22,249 nucleotides of DNA from a virus. Lineage: Duplodnaviria; Heunggongvirae; Uroviricota; Caudoviricetes. The position numbers were made by a program, and so were the translations under genes. Positions 6,156-15,454 of the stretch are shown here, piece by piece (the stretch's first letter is position 1; every line of letters starts with the position of its first letter). The notes under the pieces were generated by a model. The model worked only from the letters and a program-made list of their open reading frames with translations, had not been told where the DNA came from and ran no database searches. Location: the IMG/VR virus record IMGVR_UViG_2585427751_000008, positions 1 to 22,249 of that record; one strand, given 5' to 3'.

Positions 6156-6656
6156 TCAGACTTTCGGCAAATCGTAACGACATAACCATTCATCCGCCGA
6201 ACGGCGGGCCTCAAGACCGGGGAGTTTTACCCCCTTTGAATAAATCCAGCGGATATACTGCTTACAGGACGCGGGCATCTGCCCGGCATTGATAAGGCGC
6301 AGGAGCGTGGAGTTGCGAAAGTTCGTTTCACCGGCCCAGAAAATCCAGGAGGCCAGCGCCACCGTCTGACCACGGGTAAGCGGCACCTGAACATGACGAT
6401 CGATAGCCGCAAAGGCCCATTTCATGTCCTTTTCCAGCAGCTCCAGACACTCTTCATCAGTTTTTGTCATCCCCGGTTTCACATCCGGGCCGGTATGGCC
6501 GTAACAGATGGTGGGGGTGCCGGTGGGATCAATGTACGTGGTGTTTTCTTTCCCTTCCCAGTAGCCGGTGTAGTGCGTGGCAATAGTGAACGTCCCGGCT
6601 CCGGCCAGAACAAGGGCAATCAGCTTTTTACGCAGTGGCGCGGGGAGTTTTGGCAT
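6156..6656 (-). CDS. SAR endolysin (GH24 lysozyme family, P21 R-like)
   Basis: 166 aa. N-terminal Gly/Ala-rich weakly hydrophobic segment (LIALVLAGAGTFTIATHY) typical of a signal-anchor-release domain. Catalytic region with E…D…T spacing (EGKENTTYIDPTGTPTICYGHTG) and NFRNSTLLRLIN, close to the P21 lysozyme motifs. Confidence 0.85.
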   Translation of the reverse strand: MPKLPAPLRKKLIALVLAGAGTFTIATHYTGYWEGKENTTYIDPTGTPTICYGHTGPDVKPGMTKTDEECLELLEKDMKWAFAAIDRHVQVPLTRGQTVALASWIFWAGETNFRNSTLLRLINAGQMPASCKQYIRWIYSKGVKLPGLEARRSADEWLCRYDLPKV

Positions 6657-6727
6657 TGTTACGCTGTCTCATGGTGTTCTCTGAGCCAGCGTAACCGTGG
6701 AAAAAAGGGGGCAGGATTTGCGGAATA

Positions 6728-7150
6728 TCAGAAAAGCCGGGGCTGCGTGCGCTCCTGATGCAGGCGACGCTGGTTGCGGATAACGGAGTAAATCTGCGTC
6801 TCTGACATCTGGTAATGGCGGCGCAGGGTTTCAATTTTTTCACCCTGGCTCCAGCGGGAAAAAATCTCATTATTGCGCAGTTCGGTGAAAAGGGATTCAC
6901 CGACCGGGAGATAATAACCACGCCCGCCCATGTACCCGGCCTGTGCGGCCGCAACCTTACGGGCAAGCATTCCCGCCTGAGCAGATTCAATCCCCTGACG
7001 GTGCAGTTCAGCACTGATCACATCAACCAGGTCACGCAGCGTGCCGGGCCAGTTCTTTTTCAGCTCATCATCAGGAATATCATCCAGACGGTCAATCAGC
7101 GCGTGCAGCTGTTCGCTGTCACCAAACATGCTCATCTGTGTTTCAGCCAT
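6728..7150 (-). CDS. Mor/C-family transcriptional activator (middle/late gene activator)
   Basis: 140 aa with the C-terminal pattern of Mu Mor/C proteins (GRGYYLP…NNEIFSRW…RHYQMSETQIYSVIR). Located between the GemA-like gene and the endolysin, as mor/C are in Mu. Only one family member is present. Confidence 0.7.
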   Translation of the reverse strand: MAETQMSMFGDSEQLHALIDRLDDIPDDELKKNWPGTLRDLVDVISAELHRQGIESAQAGMLARKVAAAQAGYMGGRGYYLPVGESLFTELRNNEIFSRWSQGEKIETLRRHYQMSETQIYSVIRNQRRLHQERTQPRLF

Positions 7151-7182
7151 ACCCGCCTCCGGTCACCATTACACAGGGCAAG

Positions 7183-7214
7183 TTTAAAATAAAAATCCCG
7201 CGCTGTGGCGGGAT
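7183..7214 (-). terminator. Intrinsic terminator between early operon and Mor/C gene
   Basis: Inverted repeat ATCCCGC (7195-7201) / GCGGGAT (7208-7214) with a 6-nt loop. On the minus strand the stem is followed by a U-rich run (complement of 7183-7194). Confidence 0.5.
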
Positions 7215-7220
7215 TTGGGG

Positions 7221-7730
7221 TTAAAAAGGGGAGGATTCTTCATACAGCCTGCAAACGCGCTCATAACTCATCACTGTACGCACTGACATCCCCAGCACAT
7301 CCAGCATCTTGCGACGGTGCCAGCGTTTGAGACACTCCAGCACATCCGAGGCCAGTGCGGGGTGTTGCTCCAGCCACTGCCAGTTAGCCACACCTTCGCC
7401 ACCGTTCTGCGCGGCCGTCTGCGACTTCACCCAGCGGTTAAGGGCCGTTTCCCCGCCATCAGCGATAAAGCCCTGCCGGTGCATTACCTTCCAGATGGCG
7501 CGAATTTTGGCGGTCACCGTACCCGGTTTTAAGGCCCGGTTAACCGGTTTCTGACGCACTTTAAAACCGCGTTTTTTGAAAACATCCAGCACGCGGGATA
7601 ACTCATCCGGTGACATATCCCGGCAACTGGATTTGCCGGTGGCTGCCAGCAGAACGAATGTATAGGTTTCATCATCCAGGGCAAGCTCGCGCTTTGCCAC
7701 ATGAATGGCGGATATCAGTTTCCCTCTCAT
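7221..7730 (-). CDS. GemA-like early protein (Mu gp16 family, DUF1018)
   Basis: 169 aa. N-terminal MRGKLISAIHVAKRELALDDETY resembles the GemA N-terminus. Immediately upstream of the Mor/C gene as in Mu. Confidence 0.6.
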   Translation of the reverse strand: MRGKLISAIHVAKRELALDDETYTFVLLAATGKSSCRDMSPDELSRVLDVFKKRGFKVRQKPVNRALKPGTVTAKIRAIWKVMHRQGFIADGGETALNRWVKSQTAAQNGGEGVANWQWLEQHPALASDVLECLKRWHRRKMLDVLGMSVRTVMSYERVCRLYEESSPF

Positions 7731-8023
7731 GCTGTATCAACACTCCTGCTGATATGATAGATATTATTTTCCCGATCGAGCTGAACCCGATACTCCGGAG
7801 GAATCACAAAAATATTAAAACCATCAACAGTTTTTATTCTTGAGTAGTATTCCCCCTTATGATATCTGGCAAGTGCATTAATCAGAGAAGCCGCCGCCAG
7901 CCCAATCAGGTATTTTTTATGAAAAATACTGATAACTTTCCGGCACAGCCATCGTGTAATGACGAATGCACCGAAAAACGATGTGATATATAAACACCAG
8001 AACAACTGCGAACTACTGTCCAT
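7727..8023 (-). CDS. Hypothetical membrane-anchored protein (cassette gene 4)
   Basis: 98 aa. N-terminal hydrophobic helix LFWCLYITSFFGAFVITRWL then a soluble domain. ATGA overlap with the GemA-like start. AT-rich codon composition. Confidence 0.4.
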   Translation of the reverse strand: MDSSSQLFWCLYITSFFGAFVITRWLCRKVISIFHKKYLIGLAAASLINALARYHKGEYYSRIKTVDGFNIFVIPPEYRVQLDRENNIYHISRSVDTA

Positions 8024-8210
8024 TATCTTTCTCCTTATTCAGTCTTCTGCGGCATTCGGCACAGTCATCAGGGCTTTCAAATGTATCCGGCTCGCGATTA
8101 TGAGCCAGATATAACCACCGCCCACATATACTGATATTTTCACCTGTTTTAAAAAAATGATGCTTCTTAGCCATCAATGGCCGCGCCCATCCAGCGGGTA
8201 GACTATTCAT
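8013..8210 (-). CDS. Hypothetical small Cys/His-containing protein (cassette gene 3)
   Basis: 65 aa with ICGRW and DDCAEC plus several His residues, so possibly a small metal-binding fold. Overlaps both neighbours. Confidence 0.35.
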   Translation of the reverse strand: MNSLPAGWARPLMAKKHHFFKTGENISICGRWLYLAHNREPDTFESPDDCAECRRRLNKEKDNGQ

Positions 8211-8577
8211 TAGCTTTATCCTCCATGCTGGACAGAATCATATGTATTAATGTCGGGCGTGGAGATATACGCATTTCATTAAGCGTCTGAAGGGCAGCAA
8301 CAGCAGCCATTTTATCGGTGCCTCTGGCAATTTCTGCAAGAGAATGCACAATCCATAACGGACTTAACGCTACGGCTGAATCCAGAATCATGTCATCCAT
8401 AATAATTTCTGGCACATCCCGTTTGTCACATTCTTTATCCATAAAAGAAACGATTTTTTCCGCATCTTCCGGTTTCATACCTCCGGCGATAAGAATTTTA
8501 CGATATTCATAAGACGTTCTTAATTCAATGCTCATATTCATCTCCTGTAACTCTGACAAGGACGTGATTTTTCTCAT
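8203..8577 (-). CDS. Hypothetical soluble acidic protein (cassette gene 2)
   Basis: 124 aa, no recognisable motif. ATGA overlap with the upstream ORF. Confidence 0.4.
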   Translation of the reverse strand: MRKITSLSELQEMNMSIELRTSYEYRKILIAGGMKPEDAEKIVSFMDKECDKRDVPEIIMDDMILDSAVALSPLWIVHSLAEIARGTDKMAAVAALQTLNEMRISPRPTLIHMILSSMEDKANE

Positions 8578-8759
8578 TTACGCCTCCCGGAAATACGAAT
8601 GTATATACCGATGAGAAAATCCATAATAAACAGGAAGAGCGACATCCTGATAAAGAACCAAATGTCAGGCATAATGGACAGGTTTCCTGTAATCGCAAAT
8701 ATAAAACCAGTCCCCCACACTGGAACGATAATTGCGAAAAATACAAGTCTCTTTATCAT
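8574..8759 (-). CDS. Small two-helix membrane protein (cassette gene 1)
   Basis: 61 aa with two hydrophobic segments (LVFFAIIVPVWGTGFIFAI and FFIRMSLFLFIMDFLIGIYI) and a basic C-terminus. ATGA overlap with the upstream ORF. Confidence 0.4.
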   Translation of the reverse strand: MIKRLVFFAIIVPVWGTGFIFAITGNLSIMPDIWFFIRMSLFLFIMDFLIGIYIRISGRRK

Positions 8760-9307
8760 GGCGTTAACTCCCGTAATACAGCGTCCTCGGCGGTCCGTCG
8801 ACGGTAATAAACAGCGTGAGCAGAATGTTCAGATATGCCAAACTTTTCGCCAATTTCCCGGAATGACAGACGGCGAGGGTAATCGGAATCCCGTAGTGCA
8901 CGTATAAGACGAACATCCTCATCAGATATACGTGTGCCGGGGCGTAACTCACCGCACTTTGTTAATCCGGCACCAATCATTCCTGCGCGGCACCTGACAG
9001 AGTCTTTATTACGTCCGAGATAATCCCCCATTTGCTGGCAGGTCATTGTCCGGGCATTTTTTCGGATAAATTTATCTTCATCAGGTGTAAATCGCGGTCG
9101 TTTATATTTCAGCAACTCCGGGTATGTACTGCGCAATACGCCAGTCCGGTTATATACGGCCCAGACACTTCTTTTTATTCTGGCGGCAATATCCTTAACC
9201 GGGGTGGAGGAATAAAGCGCAATCAGCAGCGCATCTTCTTCAGGTGTCCACGGGCGGACATGAGCAGGTGCACGACCTTTTCGCCCCATGGGTTGTAATT
9301 TCATCAT
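8756..9307 (-). CDS. Hypothetical protein with three Myb/SANT-like repeats (putative DNA-binding)
   Basis: 183 aa. Three repeats of a W/F-T/S-P-E/D-E-D pattern (WTPEEDALLIAL…, FTPDEDKFIRKN…, ISDEDVRLIRAL…) about 50 residues apart, each followed by a basic helix-like segment. Confidence 0.45.
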   Translation of the reverse strand: MMKLQPMGRKGRAPAHVRPWTPEEDALLIALYSSTPVKDIAARIKRSVWAVYNRTGVLRSTYPELLKYKRPRFTPDEDKFIRKNARTMTCQQMGDYLGRNKDSVRCRAGMIGAGLTKCGELRPGTRISDEDVRLIRALRDSDYPRRLSFREIGEKFGISEHSAHAVYYRRRTAEDAVLRELTP

Positions 9308-9310
9308 GCA

Positions 9311-9826
9311 TCACCCCCTGACTCGCTTTTCAGCAGCATAAAACTCATCAGACAGAATTTCGGTCATTTTCTGATTTGCGGGTTTTACACCGCACTGAAG
9401 ATAAATCACATCGTCAACGCAGAACCACTCCACAGGGCCATACAGGATTGCTGAGAAATCAATGCCCAGCCAGAACAACAGGGCATCGGTTCTGGCATAC
9501 GTGACGGGCGAATATTCACGCCACAGACTGTTCAGTTCGTCAGAGGCAGTGCGCAGGGCTTTGGGAATGCGCGATGTGCGCGGCGTGCAGCTCCAGCCAT
9601 TCGACGCAGTCGGTTTTCGCCATAAATCACGATGAAAAGGATATTTGTCATTCGTAAAACGCAGCCCCTTAAAACAAAAACCGCTGATACCGGATACAAA
9701 TACCGACCGGCACTCAACATTCAGCACGGCCTCAAGGCGTTTTGCCTCATCCTTAACTTGCTGGCAGTCCTGCTGATATTTTTGCCACGCAGCCAGCGCG
9801 GAAGGGTTCGATGTTTTAAAGAACAT
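9311..9826 (-). CDS. Hypothetical early-region protein
   Basis: 171 aa ORF in the tightly packed early operon (1-nt overlap with the upstream gene). No motif recognised. Confidence 0.4.
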   Translation of the reverse strand: MFFKTSNPSALAAWQKYQQDCQQVKDEAKRLEAVLNVECRSVFVSGISGFCFKGLRFTNDKYPFHRDLWRKPTASNGWSCTPRTSRIPKALRTASDELNSLWREYSPVTYARTDALLFWLGIDFSAILYGPVEWFCVDDVIYLQCGVKPANQKMTEILSDEFYAAEKRVRG

Positions 9827-10359
9827 TACGCCACCTCCGCAGATATCCCGGCAGGCGCTGCCGTCCGGTCAACAATCAGGTAACGCAGAACATGTTCGGT
9901 GATATTCCAGCCGCTTAAACCGCAGATAATGGTCCCCAGGCGAATGTCGATATACGCCATCACAAACTGGGGCACACCTTCTTTCATTGCCTGCTCATCA
10001 ACTTCAGCCACCACATAAACGGTTTCACAGGTCAGAACGCCCTGCGCAAATTCCCACGCCATCGACGGAATATCATGCCCTTCAACCCACGGCAGGGATT
10101 TTCTGAAGCTGCACCACTGAACATCATCAGCCACAGACTCCTGGCGGCATTTGCGACGAACCGGCTGTACCGGGCGGGGACGCGGAATATCATAAAAACC
10201 GTTACATTCTGTCAGCACACCGGCATCAACCGCATCACGCAGAAAATAGACCATCGAGGATGGCGGCATATTCATTCTTTGAGCCAGAACGCCGCAGGTC
10301 AGACGCCCGTAAATGCTCAGCCAGTTTTTAACCCCTTCAAGCACTTTTGCATCTATCAT
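9826..10359 (-). CDS. Hypothetical early-region protein, possible N-terminal winged-helix domain
   Basis: 177 aa. The N-terminal ~50 aa (…LTCGVLAQRMNMPPSSMVYFLRDAVDAGVL) looks like a winged-helix DNA-binding fold. Weak assignment. Confidence 0.35.
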   Translation of the reverse strand: MIDAKVLEGVKNWLSIYGRLTCGVLAQRMNMPPSSMVYFLRDAVDAGVLTECNGFYDIPRPRPVQPVRRKCRQESVADDVQWCSFRKSLPWVEGHDIPSMAWEFAQGVLTCETVYVVAEVDEQAMKEGVPQFVMAYIDIRLGTIICGLSGWNITEHVLRYLIVDRTAAPAGISAEVA

Positions 10360-10362
10360 GAA

Positions 10363-10905
10363 TTATTCCTCCGTCAGCGCCACATATTCAGAATGTTTAA
10401 TTTCCTGACATTCTTCAGGAATACGCCCGTTTATTTCCCTGCCATAAGCACCTACTTTAAACACCACGCACAGGGCATCACGGGAGAGAGACGGGGTCCA
10501 CCAGGAGTCTGTGTTAAACATGGAGGGCATTCTCATTACCCCCAGCTTTTCACAGAGCCAGACAAGGAAATCAGGTCGCTTTCTTAAATCGCGTTCAGCG
10601 GCTTCAACCATTGTGGCAATCGCCGGTCCTTCAGGGCATGACTCATCAGGTCTGGCTATAAAGCACTGTCCGCTACCGATAAAAGCCACATCATCGCGCT
10701 TACGCCAGCCCGCAGGCAGAGCACCGGCAAAATAAAACTCACTGATTCTGTCCATGGCGAACGGCTTTAAGCGCAATCCGGCAGCGCCTGTATTTTTCAG
10801 TAACGTCCGAAGAATACTGTTGCGTAGCGGTAAAACAGTCTGTTGATATTTGGTGAAATATTTATTTGTCTGTGCTCTGTCTAATTTGAAATAAAAATAT
10901 GCCAT
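10363..10905 (-). CDS. Hypothetical early-region protein
   Basis: 180 aa ORF directly downstream of gam in the early operon. No motif recognised. Confidence 0.4.
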   Translation of the reverse strand: MAYFYFKLDRAQTNKYFTKYQQTVLPLRNSILRTLLKNTGAAGLRLKPFAMDRISEFYFAGALPAGWRKRDDVAFIGSGQCFIARPDESCPEGPAIATMVEAAERDLRKRPDFLVWLCEKLGVMRMPSMFNTDSWWTPSLSRDALCVVFKVGAYGREINGRIPEECQEIKHSEYVALTEE

Positions 10906-11002
10906 ATTTCCTGTTCCTTATTTTCAGTTTACAGGCGCAAGCAGCCCTCTGACGCGAGCGCCATAATTAAAACAATGTGATATCTAAAGATTTAATGCGG
11001 TG

Positions 11003-11533
11003 TTATTTATTCAGTCCGGCGTCCTGTTCAAAAGGCTCGACAGAAAAACTTTCAGCGCCTTTATTCACCTTAATACCGGCAATACCCTTTACCGCATCCG
11101 GTTCCGCCAGAATGGCTTGCTTATTCACTTCCTCTTTCGTGCGGATGAAACGCTCAAGCCCCATACGGCGCAGCATTTCAATCACACCTTCCACATCACG
11201 GCTGACGCTGCATGATGGCTTTTCCAGCCGCCATGACACCGTTCCGGTTGTCAGATTGGCAGTTTTGGTTTCGCCACCGTTCGTCAGCTCATCGCGGTTG
11301 GTTTTGCACCAGTCATGAATCCCCTTAAAAAGCACTTTGATTTCTTTTTTAAGGTTTTCAATCTGCGGCGTATAACGGGCGGTGATTTCTGCCACTTCAT
11401 CATTCATTGCCGTTTCCAGGCGCAGCGCCTCTCGCTGCATATCCCCAAAGCGACGGATATCGCGACTGACTTCTTCCCGGGTCTGCGGTGCCGCCTCGGC
11501 TGCGGCCTTTAATTTTGTAACGCGTTTAGCCAT
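11003..11533 (-). CDS. gam: Host-nuclease inhibitor Gam (Mu Gam family)
   Basis: 176 aa. Close match to recalled Mu Gam sequence, e.g. GDMQREALRLETAMNDEVAEI, NRDELTNGGETKTANLTTGTVSWR, LERFIRTKEEVNKQAIL, SVEPFEQDAG. Confidence 0.9.
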   Translation of the reverse strand: MAKRVTKLKAAAEAAPQTREEVSRDIRRFGDMQREALRLETAMNDEVAEITARYTPQIENLKKEIKVLFKGIHDWCKTNRDELTNGGETKTANLTTGTVSWRLEKPSCSVSRDVEGVIEMLRRMGLERFIRTKEEVNKQAILAEPDAVKGIAGIKVNKGAESFSVEPFEQDAGLNK

Positions 11534-11544
11534 TTTGTTTTTCC

Positions 11545-11838
11545 TTATTGCAGTGTGCCTGATGCTTTATGCACGCGGTGGCGTTTAATGATGGCATCCG
11601 CCCCAAAAGCCTGTACAGATGCCTGAAATTCCGCTGAGAGAAACTGAATAATTGCAGGACTGTGATACTGGAGAATACTTGCATAAACGTCACAGAGTGA
11701 CGTCGGGCTGTTATCCGTATCACGTTCTGTTTTCACATCCACTCCAATCTTTTCATGCACTTCAACACAGTCATTGCCTGCCAACTTTTCGTCATGCGAA
11801 ACATGATTAAATTCAAAAATAACGCGTACTTTGCTCAT
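11545..11838 (-). CDS. Hypothetical small protein, paralogue of the adjacent upstream ORF
   Basis: 97 aa from ATG at 11836-11838. N-terminus MSKVRVIFEFNHV parallels MSKVVRIIFEYKEHV of the neighbour. Confidence 0.4.
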   Translation of the reverse strand: MSKVRVIFEFNHVSHDEKLAGNDCVEVHEKIGVDVKTERDTDNSPTSLCDVYASILQYHSPAIIQFLSAEFQASVQAFGADAIIKRHRVHKASGTLQ

Positions 11839-11842
11839 GGAA

Positions 11843-12115
11843 TTACCCCTGCTGATTAAATTCATTACCTTTAATAACCCCGGAACGCATGCTCATATCT
11901 TTCATGAGCGCACTGGCTTTCATTGCCACAAGTTCAGCAAAGTCTCTGCTTTCCGCGAGCATAACCACCCCAAAAATCATGGCGGGTCCATCACCTTTCT
12001 GCTTTATCCCGGTTGAACGTATGTCCAGACTTACCCCCATGCGCACTGTTCCATCAGGGTTTTTATGGATAACGTGCTCCTTGTATTCGAAAATAATGCG
12101 TACGACTTTACTCAT
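11843..12115 (-). CDS. Hypothetical small protein, paralogue of the adjacent downstream ORF
   Basis: 90 aa. N-terminal similarity to the neighbouring ORF indicates a tandem duplication. Confidence 0.4.
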   Translation of the reverse strand: MSKVVRIIFEYKEHVIHKNPDGTVRMGVSLDIRSTGIKQKGDGPAMIFGVVMLAESRDFAELVAMKASALMKDMSMRSGVIKGNEFNQQG

Positions 12116-12363
12116 CCTCTGGTCCTCGTTCTGTTTGGATAACTGACCCGGCGTCTGACCTCACGGCAGAACCGAATCATGGCATTAAAGGCTTCTTCCT
12201 CCGTCACCGCTTCCGGTATCACCATTCGTGTGCGGTCATTAAATTCAAAAAGTAAATCGCCACATTCTTTATTTTCGGCCAGTGAAATCACCTTCACGTT
12301 ATCGAAATTAACCAGGTAAAAGCGTCCGTAAATATCAGGAATATTAAATACCGCCATAATCAC
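12112..12363 (-). CDS. Hypothetical small protein immediately downstream of B
   Basis: 83 aa ORF whose start overlaps the B stop codon. Position corresponds to the kil region of Mu, but no sequence similarity is claimed. Confidence 0.35.
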   Translation of the reverse strand: MIMAVFNIPDIYGRFYLVNFDNVKVISLAENKECGDLLFEFNDRTRMVIPEAVTEEEAFNAMIRFCREVRRRVSYPNRTRTRG

Positions 12364-13292
12364 ACCTGTGAGAGTAATTCAGGGTTGGTATAAACCTCTT
12401 TAAAGGCCGCATTAATATGTTTTTCTGTCAGCGCCGCGCCTTCACCGCTGGCGGTGAGCCACGCCTGGTTAAGCGTATGTGTCAGAACGCGTAACGCTCC
12501 CGGTTTTTCAGCGATAGCCTGCATGACGGCCAGCTCGGCCTCACCACTGATACCCCATGCCCTGGCAATGGCCAGCACATCCGCCTTTTTAGCCTTGCGA
12601 AGTTGTTTTGTACGGGCAAGACGACTGAACAGGCGCGATAAGTCATCAACGGCGCGGCGTCCACCCTTAAACAGTCCGCGCGGGTTACCAATAAGCACCA
12701 TCCCGATCCCCGTGGCGTCCTGGATTGCACGCAGTTGTTCCAGACCGTCAATACCCAGATGATCCGCCTCATCCACAATCACCAGTCCACGCGTTCCCGT
12801 CAGGCGACGGCGGATGGCGCGGGATAACGCCCCCTTGTTCGCGCGGGTGTAATCAATCCCCAGCGCATCGGCCAGCTCCAGCAGACACTCCGTGACGCTG
12901 GAGTGCGCGGGTGACAGGGTGATCATCCAGGTGTTTGGTTGCTCCTGGCAGTAATTACGGGCGGTGGCCGTTTTACCCACACCCGGTACGCCCACAATGA
13001 CGTTAATACAGCCCATCAGGCGAACCGCCTGAAACAGTGCGCGCAGCTCCTGGACTGTCTGCGTTTCCACAAACTGCGGCGGTTCCGGCAGTGCGCTTTG
13101 TTTATTCCAGTTCTCATACCAGGAACGCAGGGAAGCAGCCACAGCGGCGTTATCGCCTTTATATTTCCCCTTGCGGAAAGCCGATAATGTGCCGTCGGAA
13201 ATTCCCGCCTCTCTGGCGATGGCATACTGCGTCAGTACGCCGCCATCAATAAGTTCATCAATGGTCTTGATTACATCGTTAATATCAGTCAT
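12360..13292 (-). CDS. B: Transposition ATPase B (MuB-like AAA+ protein)
   Basis: 310 aa. N-terminal HTH-like region, Walker A GVPGVGKT, Walker B LVIVDEAD. Size and position downstream of A match MuB. Confidence 0.9.
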   Translation of the reverse strand: MTDINDVIKTIDELIDGGVLTQYAIAREAGISDGTLSAFRKGKYKGDNAAVAASLRSWYENWNKQSALPEPPQFVETQTVQELRALFQAVRLMGCINVIVGVPGVGKTATARNYCQEQPNTWMITLSPAHSSVTECLLELADALGIDYTRANKGALSRAIRRRLTGTRGLVIVDEADHLGIDGLEQLRAIQDATGIGMVLIGNPRGLFKGGRRAVDDLSRLFSRLARTKQLRKAKKADVLAIARAWGISGEAELAVMQAIAEKPGALRVLTHTLNQAWLTASGEGAALTEKHINAAFKEVYTNPELLSQV

Positions 13293-13327: not shown

Positions 13328-13364
13328 AATAACCTGAGTCGCCGCTCGGGTTATTTTTTTATTT
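13328..13364 (+). terminator. Intrinsic-terminator-like hairpin in the A-B intergenic region, oriented antisense to the transposase operon
   Basis: Stem AATAACCTGAG (13328-13338) pairs with CTCGGGTTATT (13345-13355), 6-nt loop, then a T-run on the plus strand (13356-13364). The minus-strand downstream sequence is not U-rich. Confidence 0.35.
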
Positions 13365-15454
13365 CAGGCCAGTGGATCACTTTCTTTTAATTTTGCTTCG
13401 AGCAGTTGCAATCCCCGCTGGAAATTACGCTCGTATTCTTCATCAGGTTCATCGTCAGCGACCGGTTGCTGAACGGTCACCGTATTACCCACAGGGCGGT
13501 ATATGTTTTCCAGCCATGGCTCCTGCGGCTTGTGCTCCAGCACGTTGACAACCTCATCCTCGGCATCACGGATTTTTTCCTCTGCGCGTTTACGCATACC
13601 TTTAAGGCGCTGTTGCTGTTTGTAGTATTCCGCGCTGACCGGGAAGGCTTCGCGTTTATTGCCGTCCCATACCGCCTCGCAAATCACGCTGCCATCCGGG
13701 CGACGAACGGTAATTCGTTCGGCATCATGAATGTCATAGCTGATAAGCACCTTGCGGCCATGCTCATCACGCAGCTCGGGCGCGTAGTAAATATTATTCA
13801 GCCAGCGTATTTCACAGCGTCTTACAGGGCGCTCCACCATCGGCCGGAACATGTCCCGCAATTCCACATCGGACAGCCATTCAATTTCCGTATCCTCTTC
13901 TGCCAGGCGTTTTTTTCTGAACTCCGCCGGGCTGTAATGCTTGCCGTTCGGCTTCACCGGTAATTCATCGTGCGGCCGGTTGTTGTACCACTCAACACCG
14001 TCACGAATGGCATCAATCAGTTCAGACCAGGACGGTAAATCACGCATCGCTGACTGCTGCCGGGCGTTCAGCCGTTTGCCCTGTTGCAGGGCAGTAAATG
14101 CCGAGCGTAAATCGCGGTTGGTTTTACGTAACGTCTCGCGATCTGCACCTTTCCCGAAATAGGTGCGGTATCTGCGGGCTATGCGCATCGGTAATGTGCG
14201 GTTAAGCCGTTCGATAATGCCCCGTCCCTGCGGGTTACCGGCAATTCCGGTCGGGTGATTAATCCCCAGTCGCGGCAGTATCCCCACAATCTCTTTATCC
14301 AGGATGTCGGCCGTTTCCCCGGAGCCGTTATCCGAGTAATACAGAAACGGTTTGCCGTGATAGCGAATACCGTGCTGTATGGCGCCGGCTACGGCGAAAA
14401 CATTTTCAGCCAGGTCAAGGCTCCAGCCCACCACAAAGCGCGTGCCACCGTCGATAACAAAGGTCACTTCCGGTGCAAATGGCCGCCCGTGAACCGGGTG
14501 CCTGCATTTCAGCTTCATGCCGTGACCGTCACCAATCCAGACATAATTAACCGGCATTTTTGACCAGTCGCGGCGCGTGAATCCCTCAAGCTGGCGGTAT
14601 TCACTGCCGGTCACCCGGCCTTTTTGTTTCACCACTTCCGGCAATTTTTTCATTGCGCGGCGAATAGTGTCATAAGAGGGCATGATATCGAGCATATAAG
14701 GCTCATCAGCGTGCCGGTGCTGCCATTCGGCGACAAAATCCTCGTAAGCCTCGGTCATTGGTCGGCCGTTTGACTGGCGATACTGCGCCAGAAATTCGGG
14801 CAGCCAGTTAATATCTTCGGCTTTTATTTCCTGGCGTTTACCCGGTGCCAGTAAAAGCAGGCGTTCAGCGGCGTTCTGTGCCTTGTTAAAGGCCGCAATC
14901 CAGCGTTTCAGCGTGATTTCACTCAACGCGCGGCGGTTTCCCTTTTTGGCGTTCGCTGTCTCAACCATTGCCACAATGCGCTCGTCCAGTTGTGAGCGTG
15001 ACAGACGGTCAACAATAAACCGGATAGCTTTAGCGCAGCTGAAACCGGGTTGTTGCGCGAATTTCAGCACCTCGCTGACAATCGCGATTCGTGCATCAGC
15101 CACCTGCCGCTGGTTTTCAGTCAGGGCATTGAGGCGTTCGACCATCAGTTGTGGTGAACCGCGATATGCCTCCACCACATCAACCACGTCAGGTGAGCGT
15201 CTGGCCTTTGTCACCACCGGAGCCGGTGATTCGTCGGCTTTTTGCGTCATCAGTTGCAGGGCGTAGCGTTCACGCAATGCCTGCTGCGTCACTTCAGGTA
15301 AACAGTCGATGCTGTATTCAGTTGCTTTAGAGCCTGAGCGACGACGGGAACAACAGCTTTTCCCTTGTGCGTAACGTTGTAATGCCTGGCGAATACCTTT
15401 TGTTGTAGCAGGCATTCCGGGCGCGCCAATCAGTTCTTTTGCAATGACATACAT
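13364..15454 (-). CDS. A: DDE transposase A (MuA family)
   Basis: 696 aa. Catalytic-core motifs in MuA-like order and spacing: WIGDGH, YYSDNGS, NPQGRGIIERLNRT. Followed by B and preceded by a Ner-like gene. Confidence 0.9.
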   Translation of the reverse strand: MYVIAKELIGAPGMPATTKGIRQALQRYAQGKSCCSRRRSGSKATEYSIDCLPEVTQQALRERYALQLMTQKADESPAPVVTKARRSPDVVDVVEAYRGSPQLMVERLNALTENQRQVADARIAIVSEVLKFAQQPGFSCAKAIRFIVDRLSRSQLDERIVAMVETANAKKGNRRALSEITLKRWIAAFNKAQNAAERLLLLAPGKRQEIKAEDINWLPEFLAQYRQSNGRPMTEAYEDFVAEWQHRHADEPYMLDIMPSYDTIRRAMKKLPEVVKQKGRVTGSEYRQLEGFTRRDWSKMPVNYVWIGDGHGMKLKCRHPVHGRPFAPEVTFVIDGGTRFVVGWSLDLAENVFAVAGAIQHGIRYHGKPFLYYSDNGSGETADILDKEIVGILPRLGINHPTGIAGNPQGRGIIERLNRTLPMRIARRYRTYFGKGADRETLRKTNRDLRSAFTALQQGKRLNARQQSAMRDLPSWSELIDAIRDGVEWYNNRPHDELPVKPNGKHYSPAEFRKKRLAEEDTEIEWLSDVELRDMFRPMVERPVRRCEIRWLNNIYYAPELRDEHGRKVLISYDIHDAERITVRRPDGSVICEAVWDGNKREAFPVSAEYYKQQQRLKGMRKRAEEKIRDAEDEVVNVLEHKPQEPWLENIYRPVGNTVTVQQPVADDEPDEEYERNFQRGLQLLEAKLKESDPLA

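Follow-up and report, generated by a model that had tools for sequence, protein, structure and literature searches.

The semi-essential early (SE) region of bacteriophage Mu holds 14 open reading frames (ORFs), most of them without an assigned function; the region is deletable and encodes functions that harm the host (PMC3325207). Mup07/E6 (gnarl2), one of its accessory genes, has been shown to act on the lipopolysaccharide (LPS)/O-antigen barrier of the host. In Mu, the gene for the nuclease inhibitor Gam and a short spacer are followed by gp11 (Mup11, NP_050615; formerly E10/E11/E12; positions 6424 to 6954) and gp12 (Mup12, NP_050616; formerly E13; PF26885; positions 6954 to 7484), each 176 amino acids (aa) long, and in the Mu-like phage SfMu a protein that RefSeq names "DUF5420 family protein" (YP_009152197, itself called gp11 in that phage) is encoded next to gam. 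Here we describe the corresponding genes in a virus sequence of 22,249 nucleotides (nt), IMG/VR record IMGVR_UViG_2585427751_000008, the whole of which (positions 1 to 22,249) we refer to as the window. Three consecutive ORFs on its minus strand, ORF1 to ORF3 (hereafter the trio), are SE region genes of an Escherichia coli Mu-like prophage. We find that they are a DUF5420-superfamily gene in an exchangeable slot and orthologs of Mu gp11 and gp12, and we tentatively read them as a host-interaction or counter-defense accessory module that acts without catalysis, a function that we consider possible rather than probable.

A compact block of three early genes

The trio is arranged, in the direction of transcription on the minus strand, as ORF1 (180 aa; 10363 to 10905), ORF2 (177 aa; 9826 to 10359), and ORF3 (171 aa; 9311 to 9826). 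A sequence-only reading of the window had described three tightly packed ORFs of 171 to 180 aa here, and both the coordinates and the lengths proved exact. In the sequence, 3 nt separate the ORF1 stop codon from the ORF2 ATG, the ORF2/ORF3 junction is a 1-nt overlap (TAATG), and another 3 nt lie between the ORF3 stop and the start of the following gene, which encodes 183 aa (8756 to 9307). Shine-Dalgarno-like sites (AGGA, GGAGGA, and GGAGG) are found 5 to 7 nt 5' of all three starts. Translational coupling of these genes is suggested by such narrow spacing and supported by the ribosome-binding sites.

We compared the ratios of nonsynonymous to synonymous substitution rates (dN/dS) across 15 to 25 distinct alleles. 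Median values were 0.33 for ORF1, 0.16 for ORF2, and 0.19 for ORF3, compared to 0.14 for gam; the ratio for ORF1 was thus the highest of the trio, and it rose above 1 in some allele pairs. Given the low dN/dS values and the full-length homologs found for each ORF, we conclude that all three are real genes under purifying selection and not chance ORFs. The 1595-bp block was found at 100% identity in three complete E. coli chromosomes; overall, 234 of the 5426 complete genomes of the species carry it.

Between positions 8500 and 11700, promoter-like and terminator-like sites were no more frequent than in shuffled sequence, a result consistent with genes internal to a long early transcript. No tandem repeats were found. 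We infer that the trio is transcribed within the long early (Pe) transcript upon infection or induction. In lysogens the repressor keeps the early operon of Mu silent, an arrangement that bears on the idea that the trio protects the lysogen as prophage defense or superinfection-exclusion genes. Genes of this kind often occupy accessory slots of prophages, and ORF1 does sit in a variable slot. However, because the trio lies inside a repressor-silenced early operon, where internal promoters do not exceed chance, we regard a lysogen-protecting role as highly improbable; nor did any of the three proteins match a family among the PADLOC defense models at E ≤ 0.1.

Orthologs of Mu gp11 and gp12

The sequence-only reading had presented the three proteins as unrecognized, and it had pictured the equivalent interval of Mu as carrying small host-interaction genes. 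Profile searches instead placed all three in catalogued families (Gp11_C, Mu-Gp12, and DUF5420/phrog_2260), the PHROG matches extending over the full length, and comparison with Mu showed gp11 and gp12 in that interval. ORF2 shares 67% identity with Mu gp11 across 177 aa (BLASTP, E = 5e-82) and occupies the same slot, 3' of gam and 5' of gp12. The Pfam model Gp11_C (PF25754) matched ORF2 with 139.9 bits against a cutoff of 27 (E = 3.4e-41), with residues 90 to 167 covering model positions 1 to 78 of 78. The C-terminal domain is common to the 177-aa protein of this prophage and its 176-aa counterpart in Mu, and the variable part between them is a linker at approximately residues 62 to 80. In Mu, gp11 overlaps gp12 at the stop/start codons just as ORF2 overlaps ORF3, but Mu gp11 comes straight after the gam spacer, whereas here the DUF5420 gene intervenes.

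A winged helix at the N terminus of ORF2 had been proposed as possible. As a fold-level suggestion this assignment is reasonable, and we consider it probable, but it is not proven: the Pfam models HTH_10, HTH_20, and CodY all match residues ∼17 to 50, only at E values of 0.04 to 0.3, and the AlphaFold2 (AF2) model, which lays out a winged helix-turn-helix (wHTH) and a small alpha/beta domain, has low confidence (predicted local distance difference test [pLDDT] of 59.5). In this model the N terminus resembles, at the level of the fold, the winged-helix regulators Lrp/AsnC, MarR, and ArsR, and the layout of Lrp/AsnC (wHTH plus small alpha/beta domain) is also that of ORF2. Sequence similarity to these regulators is not significant, however, and at root mean square deviations of 7 to 11 Å the two-domain arrangement does not superpose. 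Zalpha and other nonregulatory wHTH domains fit the ORF2 N terminus equally well.

These comparisons speak to the proposal that gp11 regulates early transcription, of either phage or host genes, in a role like that of GemA or Ner, and that gp12 and the DUF5420 protein modulate it as co- or antiregulators. The modeled two-domain architecture would suit such a role, as would the adjoining gene, which is also of the HTH/Myb type. Yet no regulator family gave a significant match (the E values cited above are the best obtained with Pfam HTH models), confidence in the ORF2 model is low, and nonregulatory domains such as Zalpha do just as well, so that we judge a regulatory function of this kind decidedly unlikely.

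The assignment of ORF3 is equally direct. It is 53% identical to Mu gp12 over 169 of its 171 residues (BLASTP, E = 1e-67), its position is the same, and there is no substantial difference between the two. A protein identical to ORF3 bears the RefSeq label "Mu-Gp12 family protein," and every one of the 46 database homologs of ORF3 carries a precomputed match to PF26885; our own Pfam scan of ORF3 returned no family, in a Pfam copy that lacks the PF26885 model. Beyond this gene the two phages differ, since gp12 is followed by gp13 and gp14 in Mu and ORF3 is followed by the 183-aa Myb-like gene in this prophage. The AF2 model of ORF3 is confident (pLDDT, 89; predicted template modeling [pTM] score, 0.80) and runs from an N-terminal strand through a long helix, a beta hairpin, three helices, and three short strands to a C-terminal helix. 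Searched against predicted viral structures, this alpha/beta model gave full-length matches to unnamed phage proteins of 174 to 194 aa (template modeling [TM] scores, 0.80 and 0.71; E = 2.6e-9 and 7e-8), lengths typical of DUF5420; the BFVD entries A0A7G8Z7V2 and A0A6G5YHC7 are among the hits. Sequence searches of the PDB with each protein and with the family profiles returned matches at chance level only, and the gp12 fold has no solved relative.

A divergent DUF5420 protein in the first slot

ORF1 has no counterpart in Mu but has one in SfMu. It matched phrog_2260 strongly (E = 1.2e-71) and the Pfam model DUF5420 (PF17457) below the cutoff (12.9 bits versus 26; E = 0.095). A profile search for relatives of ORF1 among 1.84 billion representatives found 26, and in the resulting alignment of 27 superfamily members all 27 match phrog_2260 and 18 match DUF5420 (best E = 9.3e-28). 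Members have in common an N-terminal YFK strand, a PD..EG motif, and a C-terminal EIK(H/K)SE(F/Y)(V/I)ALTEE helix. The close family of ORF1 is small, forming 14 clusters at 90% identity on a narrow E. coli branch.

The DUF5420 protein of SfMu is 41% identical to ORF1 and is encoded in the same slot between gam and the ortholog of Mu gp11. Together with gp11 of Mannheimia phage 3927AP2, another DUF5420/phrog_2260 protein, it resembles ORF1 in length, in slot, in the N-terminal YFK, and in the C-terminal IKHSEYVALTEE. On these alignments we assign ORF1 to the DUF5420 superfamily, as a divergent protein of the kind found at that slot in SfMu. We hold the identity and orthology of the three genes to be nearly certain. 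None of the three ORFs matched an NCBIfam model, and all three families are of uncharacterized function; in this, and in the place of the genes beside gam in a Mu-type early operon, the sequence-only reading is supported.

Distant homology between DUF5420 and Mu-Gp12

ORF1 and ORF3/gp12 displayed weak but collinear similarity at both termini, and we therefore compared the two families profile to profile. A first hhalign comparison of DUF5420 with Mu-Gp12, using shallow alignments, was not significant. After the DUF5420 alignment had been widened by profile search, 159 columns aligned collinearly from end to end (E = 9e-5). The score of 34.0 exceeded all those obtained from column shuffles (13.2 ± 2.4; maximum, 20.0; n = 100) and from block shuffles (15.1 ± 3.0; maximum, 25.6; n = 100). 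As a control, gp11 was aligned with gp12 and with DUF5420; the hhalign scores of 14 to 15 were at the level of the shuffles, and kinship of gp11 with either family was rejected. From the profile comparison we conclude that DUF5420 and Mu-Gp12 are distant homologs, a relationship that is new in this analysis. Given this homology, the block holds two paralogs, one on either side of gp11.

Gp11 as constant core beside an exchangeable slot

To place the block in a wider context, we scanned 119 loci with profiles of the three families and with the neighboring genes of the window. Among 75 distinct gp11 neighborhoods, the full order DUF5420-gp11-gp12 was found in 33 and the Mu-type order gp11-gp12 in 22; gp11 stood alone in 12 and followed DUF5420 without gp12 in 7. 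The one remaining neighborhood is that of SfMu, in which DUF5420-gp11 is accompanied by a truncated gp12. What stays constant across these neighborhoods is gp11, the core of the block, and the genes of the DUF5420 fold are optional. Where the genes do occur together, their junctions are stereotyped: DUF5420 and gp11 are separated by 3 nt at 63 of 67 junctions, and a 1-nt overlap joins gp11 to gp12 at 56 of 76.

Among close relatives of the prophage, gp11 is 88 to 100%, gp12 90 to 100%, and gam mostly 83 to 100% identical. The ORF1 slot was found in three states in these same relatives, holding an allele 82 to 100% identical to ORF1, holding a DUF5420 allele only 23 to 24% identical to it, or standing empty. 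At one locus (L046), ORF1 had been lost via an internal deletion that left a 14-codon remnant starting MKYVY. Set in a backbone of mostly 90% or higher identity, the slot behaves as an exchangeable cassette.

The families also differ in their distribution. Gp11 and gp12 do not extend beyond the Mu-like prophages of enterobacteria, and a scan of 185,579 species-representative genomes yielded a single locus, that of Citrobacter braakii. DUF5420 is wider, occurring without gp11 at the same early-region position in Mannheimia and Haemophilus Mu-like phages and also in the early operon of a GC-rich, apparently non-Mu prophage.

This distribution weighs on a second view of the trio, as auxiliary replication or transposition factors equivalent to arm (amplified replication of Mu), a classical function of the SE region that was never assigned to a gene. 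Gp11 would bind Mu or host DNA by its winged helix, and gp12 and the DUF5420 protein would assist, so that replicative transposition becomes more efficient. Genetic work of the 1980s located arm to the right of gam, and our search of the literature on "amplified replication" found nothing. The trio does share one gene block with A, B, and gam, the N terminus of ORF2 is wHTH-like, and purifying selection has conserved gp11 and gp12 in Mu, D108, SfMu, and the Mu-like prophages of Salmonella and Citrobacter. Wider spread would be expected of a general replication factor, however, than the restriction of gp11 and gp12 to enterobacterial Mu-like phages, with its one locus among the species representatives, and the Mannheimia Mu-like phage makes do with DUF5420 while having neither gp11 nor gp12. 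The ORF1 slot, moreover, is freely swapped or lost, and no replication-protein family was matched. A role of the arm type seems to us somewhat unlikely.

Several of the loci showed further peculiarities. One Mu-like contig (L033, 5473 to 6602) carries two tandem DUF5420-superfamily genes 5' of gp11, and Mu-type gam was not detectable in L033, L035 to L038, or L042. At L042, the DUF5420 gene has a 212-aa ORF on its upstream side, and in the Mannheimia Mu-like phage (L120) the corresponding part of the early region includes a gene annotated as DUF3164.

A possible host-interaction or counter-defense module

The reading that we favor, if tentatively, is that of a noncatalytic accessory module for host interaction or counter-defense. 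The trio would then be early accessory proteins that the phage can dispense with and that work by binding rather than catalysis. We favor binding because no enzyme family or catalytic motif was found for the trio in Pfam, NCBIfam, or the PDB. We favor dispensability because Mu does without ORF1, because the slot is lost or swapped among relatives, because the entire SE region is deletable, and because Mup07 offers a precedent. In such a module, the N-terminal winged helix of gp11 would bind nucleic acid; the two proteins of the DUF5420 fold would be nonenzymatic and would serve as binding proteins or adaptors for factors of the host or the phage in the early phase of lytic growth; and ORF1 would be the exchangeable, host-specific component. 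Mup07 (gnarl2) and the trio both lie within the SE early region and have nonessential accessory status in common, but gnarl proteins are 40 to 90 aa long, compared to 171 to 180 aa for the trio, and there is no sequence relationship between them, so that Mup07 is a regional precedent only and not evidence for the trio.

A narrower version would make the block a so far undescribed counter-defense or host-takeover module of Mu-like phages, built from a winged-helix gp11 core and one or two members of the phage-specific DUF5420/Mu-Gp12 fold, in which the swappable DUF5420 allele determines the host factor or defense system to be neutralized. In that specific form we consider the proposal unlikely. 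An anti-defense role is plausible for ORF1, which alone of the trio displays the presence/absence and allele-swap pattern of an accessory gene. For gp11 and gp12 there is no specific support for such a role, and their evolution is as slow as that of gam. No match to a characterized defense-system inhibitor was found for the trio in the general libraries Pfam, PHROGs, NCBIfam, and PDB.

Several observations weigh against a host-interaction or counter-defense module even in its broader form. Gp11 and gp12 are conserved, with dN/dS values of 0.16 to 0.19 that are slow like that of gam, and show no obvious arms race. The isoelectric points (pI) of ORF1, ORF2, and ORF3 (8.6, 5.2, and 8.7) and their net charges at pH 7 (+2.6, −4.4, and +3.5) do not fit an acidic DNA mimic of the Ocr/ArdA type. 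The winged helix through which gp11 would act comes from a model of low pLDDT. An obligate complex is unlikely, as 12 of the 75 neighborhoods have gp11 with no DUF5420-fold gene beside it, and obligate pairing of gp11 with such a partner was rejected on the same count. No relevant publication was found on DUF5420, on PF25754, PF26885, or PF17457, or on Mup11/Mup12, the last search being swamped by mouse Mup genes. Finally, in the available part of the supplementary files of a published accessory-gene screen, Mup07 is present and the trio, Mup11, and Mup12 are absent.

The spacer and the neighboring genes

All the genes considered here are encoded on the minus strand, with A and B followed by small ORFs, gam, the trio, the Myb-like gene, variable small ORFs, gemA, and mor. 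Of the early operon genes that flank the block at a distance, MuA occupies 13364 to 15454, MuB 12360 to 13292, gemA 7221 to 7730, and mor 6728 to 7150. The upstream neighbor of the trio is gam (11003 to 11533), which encodes the host-nuclease inhibitor (Pfam Phage_Mu_Gam, E = 4.2e-40; phrog_491, E = 1.6e-67). The sequence-only reading had put the trio directly downstream of gam; the block does adjoin gam in the early operon, but a conserved noncoding spacer of 97 nt (10906 to 11002, minus strand) intervenes between the gam stop codon and ORF1.

This spacer aligns with those of Mu, SfMu, and other Mu-like phages regardless of whether DUF5420 or gp11 follows. It contains TTCACATTnTTTTAATTATGGCGC...GCGCC; read on the minus strand, an invariant core, TTTTAATTATGGCGC, is followed by a GC-rich inverted repeat, GGCGC...GCGCC. 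The spacer had no match in Rfam, and its RNA fold was not unusually stable (z-score, 0.2). It may mark a module boundary, or it may be a regulatory or processing site.

Downstream of the trio, the 183-aa product of the gene at 8756 to 9307 (minus strand) matches phrog_323 (E = 2.5e-53) and Myb/HTH Pfam models at subthreshold scores, and it seemingly comprises several tandem SANT/Myb-like HTH units; RefSeq names it "SANT/Myb-like DNA-binding domain-containing protein." Phrog_323 also underlies the PHROG-derived label "transcriptional regulator, D5-like" that the 99-aa gp9, upstream of gam, bears in the Mu record. Close relatives carry two allele classes of the gene, ∼95 to 100% and ∼71 to 75% identical. 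From the Myb-like gene to gemA (7727 to 8760, minus strand) the window holds small ORFs at a GC content of ∼0.44, compared to 0.50 to 0.59 on the flanks. The content of this interval differs among otherwise near-identical prophages, with the ORFs at 8574, 8203, 8013, and 7727 present or absent depending on the locus; it is presumably what the sequence-only reading had called the cassette region.

Upstream of gam, two adjacent small ORFs on the minus strand (11545 to 11865 and 11843 to 12115) have an N-terminal motif in common, MSKV-R(V/I)IFE(F/Y) (BLASTP, E = 0.004), and a similar motif, MAKVIFEFN, is found in other Mu-like loci. The two may be tandem paralogs, and the true start of the first of the pair is probably an internal methionine at residue 10. 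Just after MuB, a minus-strand ORF of 83 aa (12112 to 12363) has a C terminus that matches phrog_1518, "host nuclease inhibitor" (E = 3.7e-8), and may be a second small nuclease-inhibitor-like early gene besides gam. In E. coli 23CRST047 (L004, 14607 to 16942), whose gam-to-gp12 block is 100% identical to that of the window, an ISEc22 element of the IS66 family is inserted just 5' of gam, and the MuA gene is frameshifted. Given the insertion and the frameshift, that copy of the prophage is defective; upstream of gam, its early region is unlike that of the window.

Implications

In itself, the presence of these genes adds little to what was known of Mu-like phages: they are already annotated, two as orthologs of Mu gp11 and gp12 and one as a DUF5420 protein, and they form an ordinary part of the Mu SE early region. 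What is new is that DUF5420 and Mu-Gp12 form one superfamily whose fold has no solved representative, that gp11 is the constant core of the block, and that the DUF5420 slot is exchangeable. The trio thus offers a small and well-defined target for giving function to part of the Mu SE region, in which most ORFs are still unassigned decades after the mapping of the region. If a counter-defense role proved true, the superfamily would bring a new protein fold to the anti-defense proteins.

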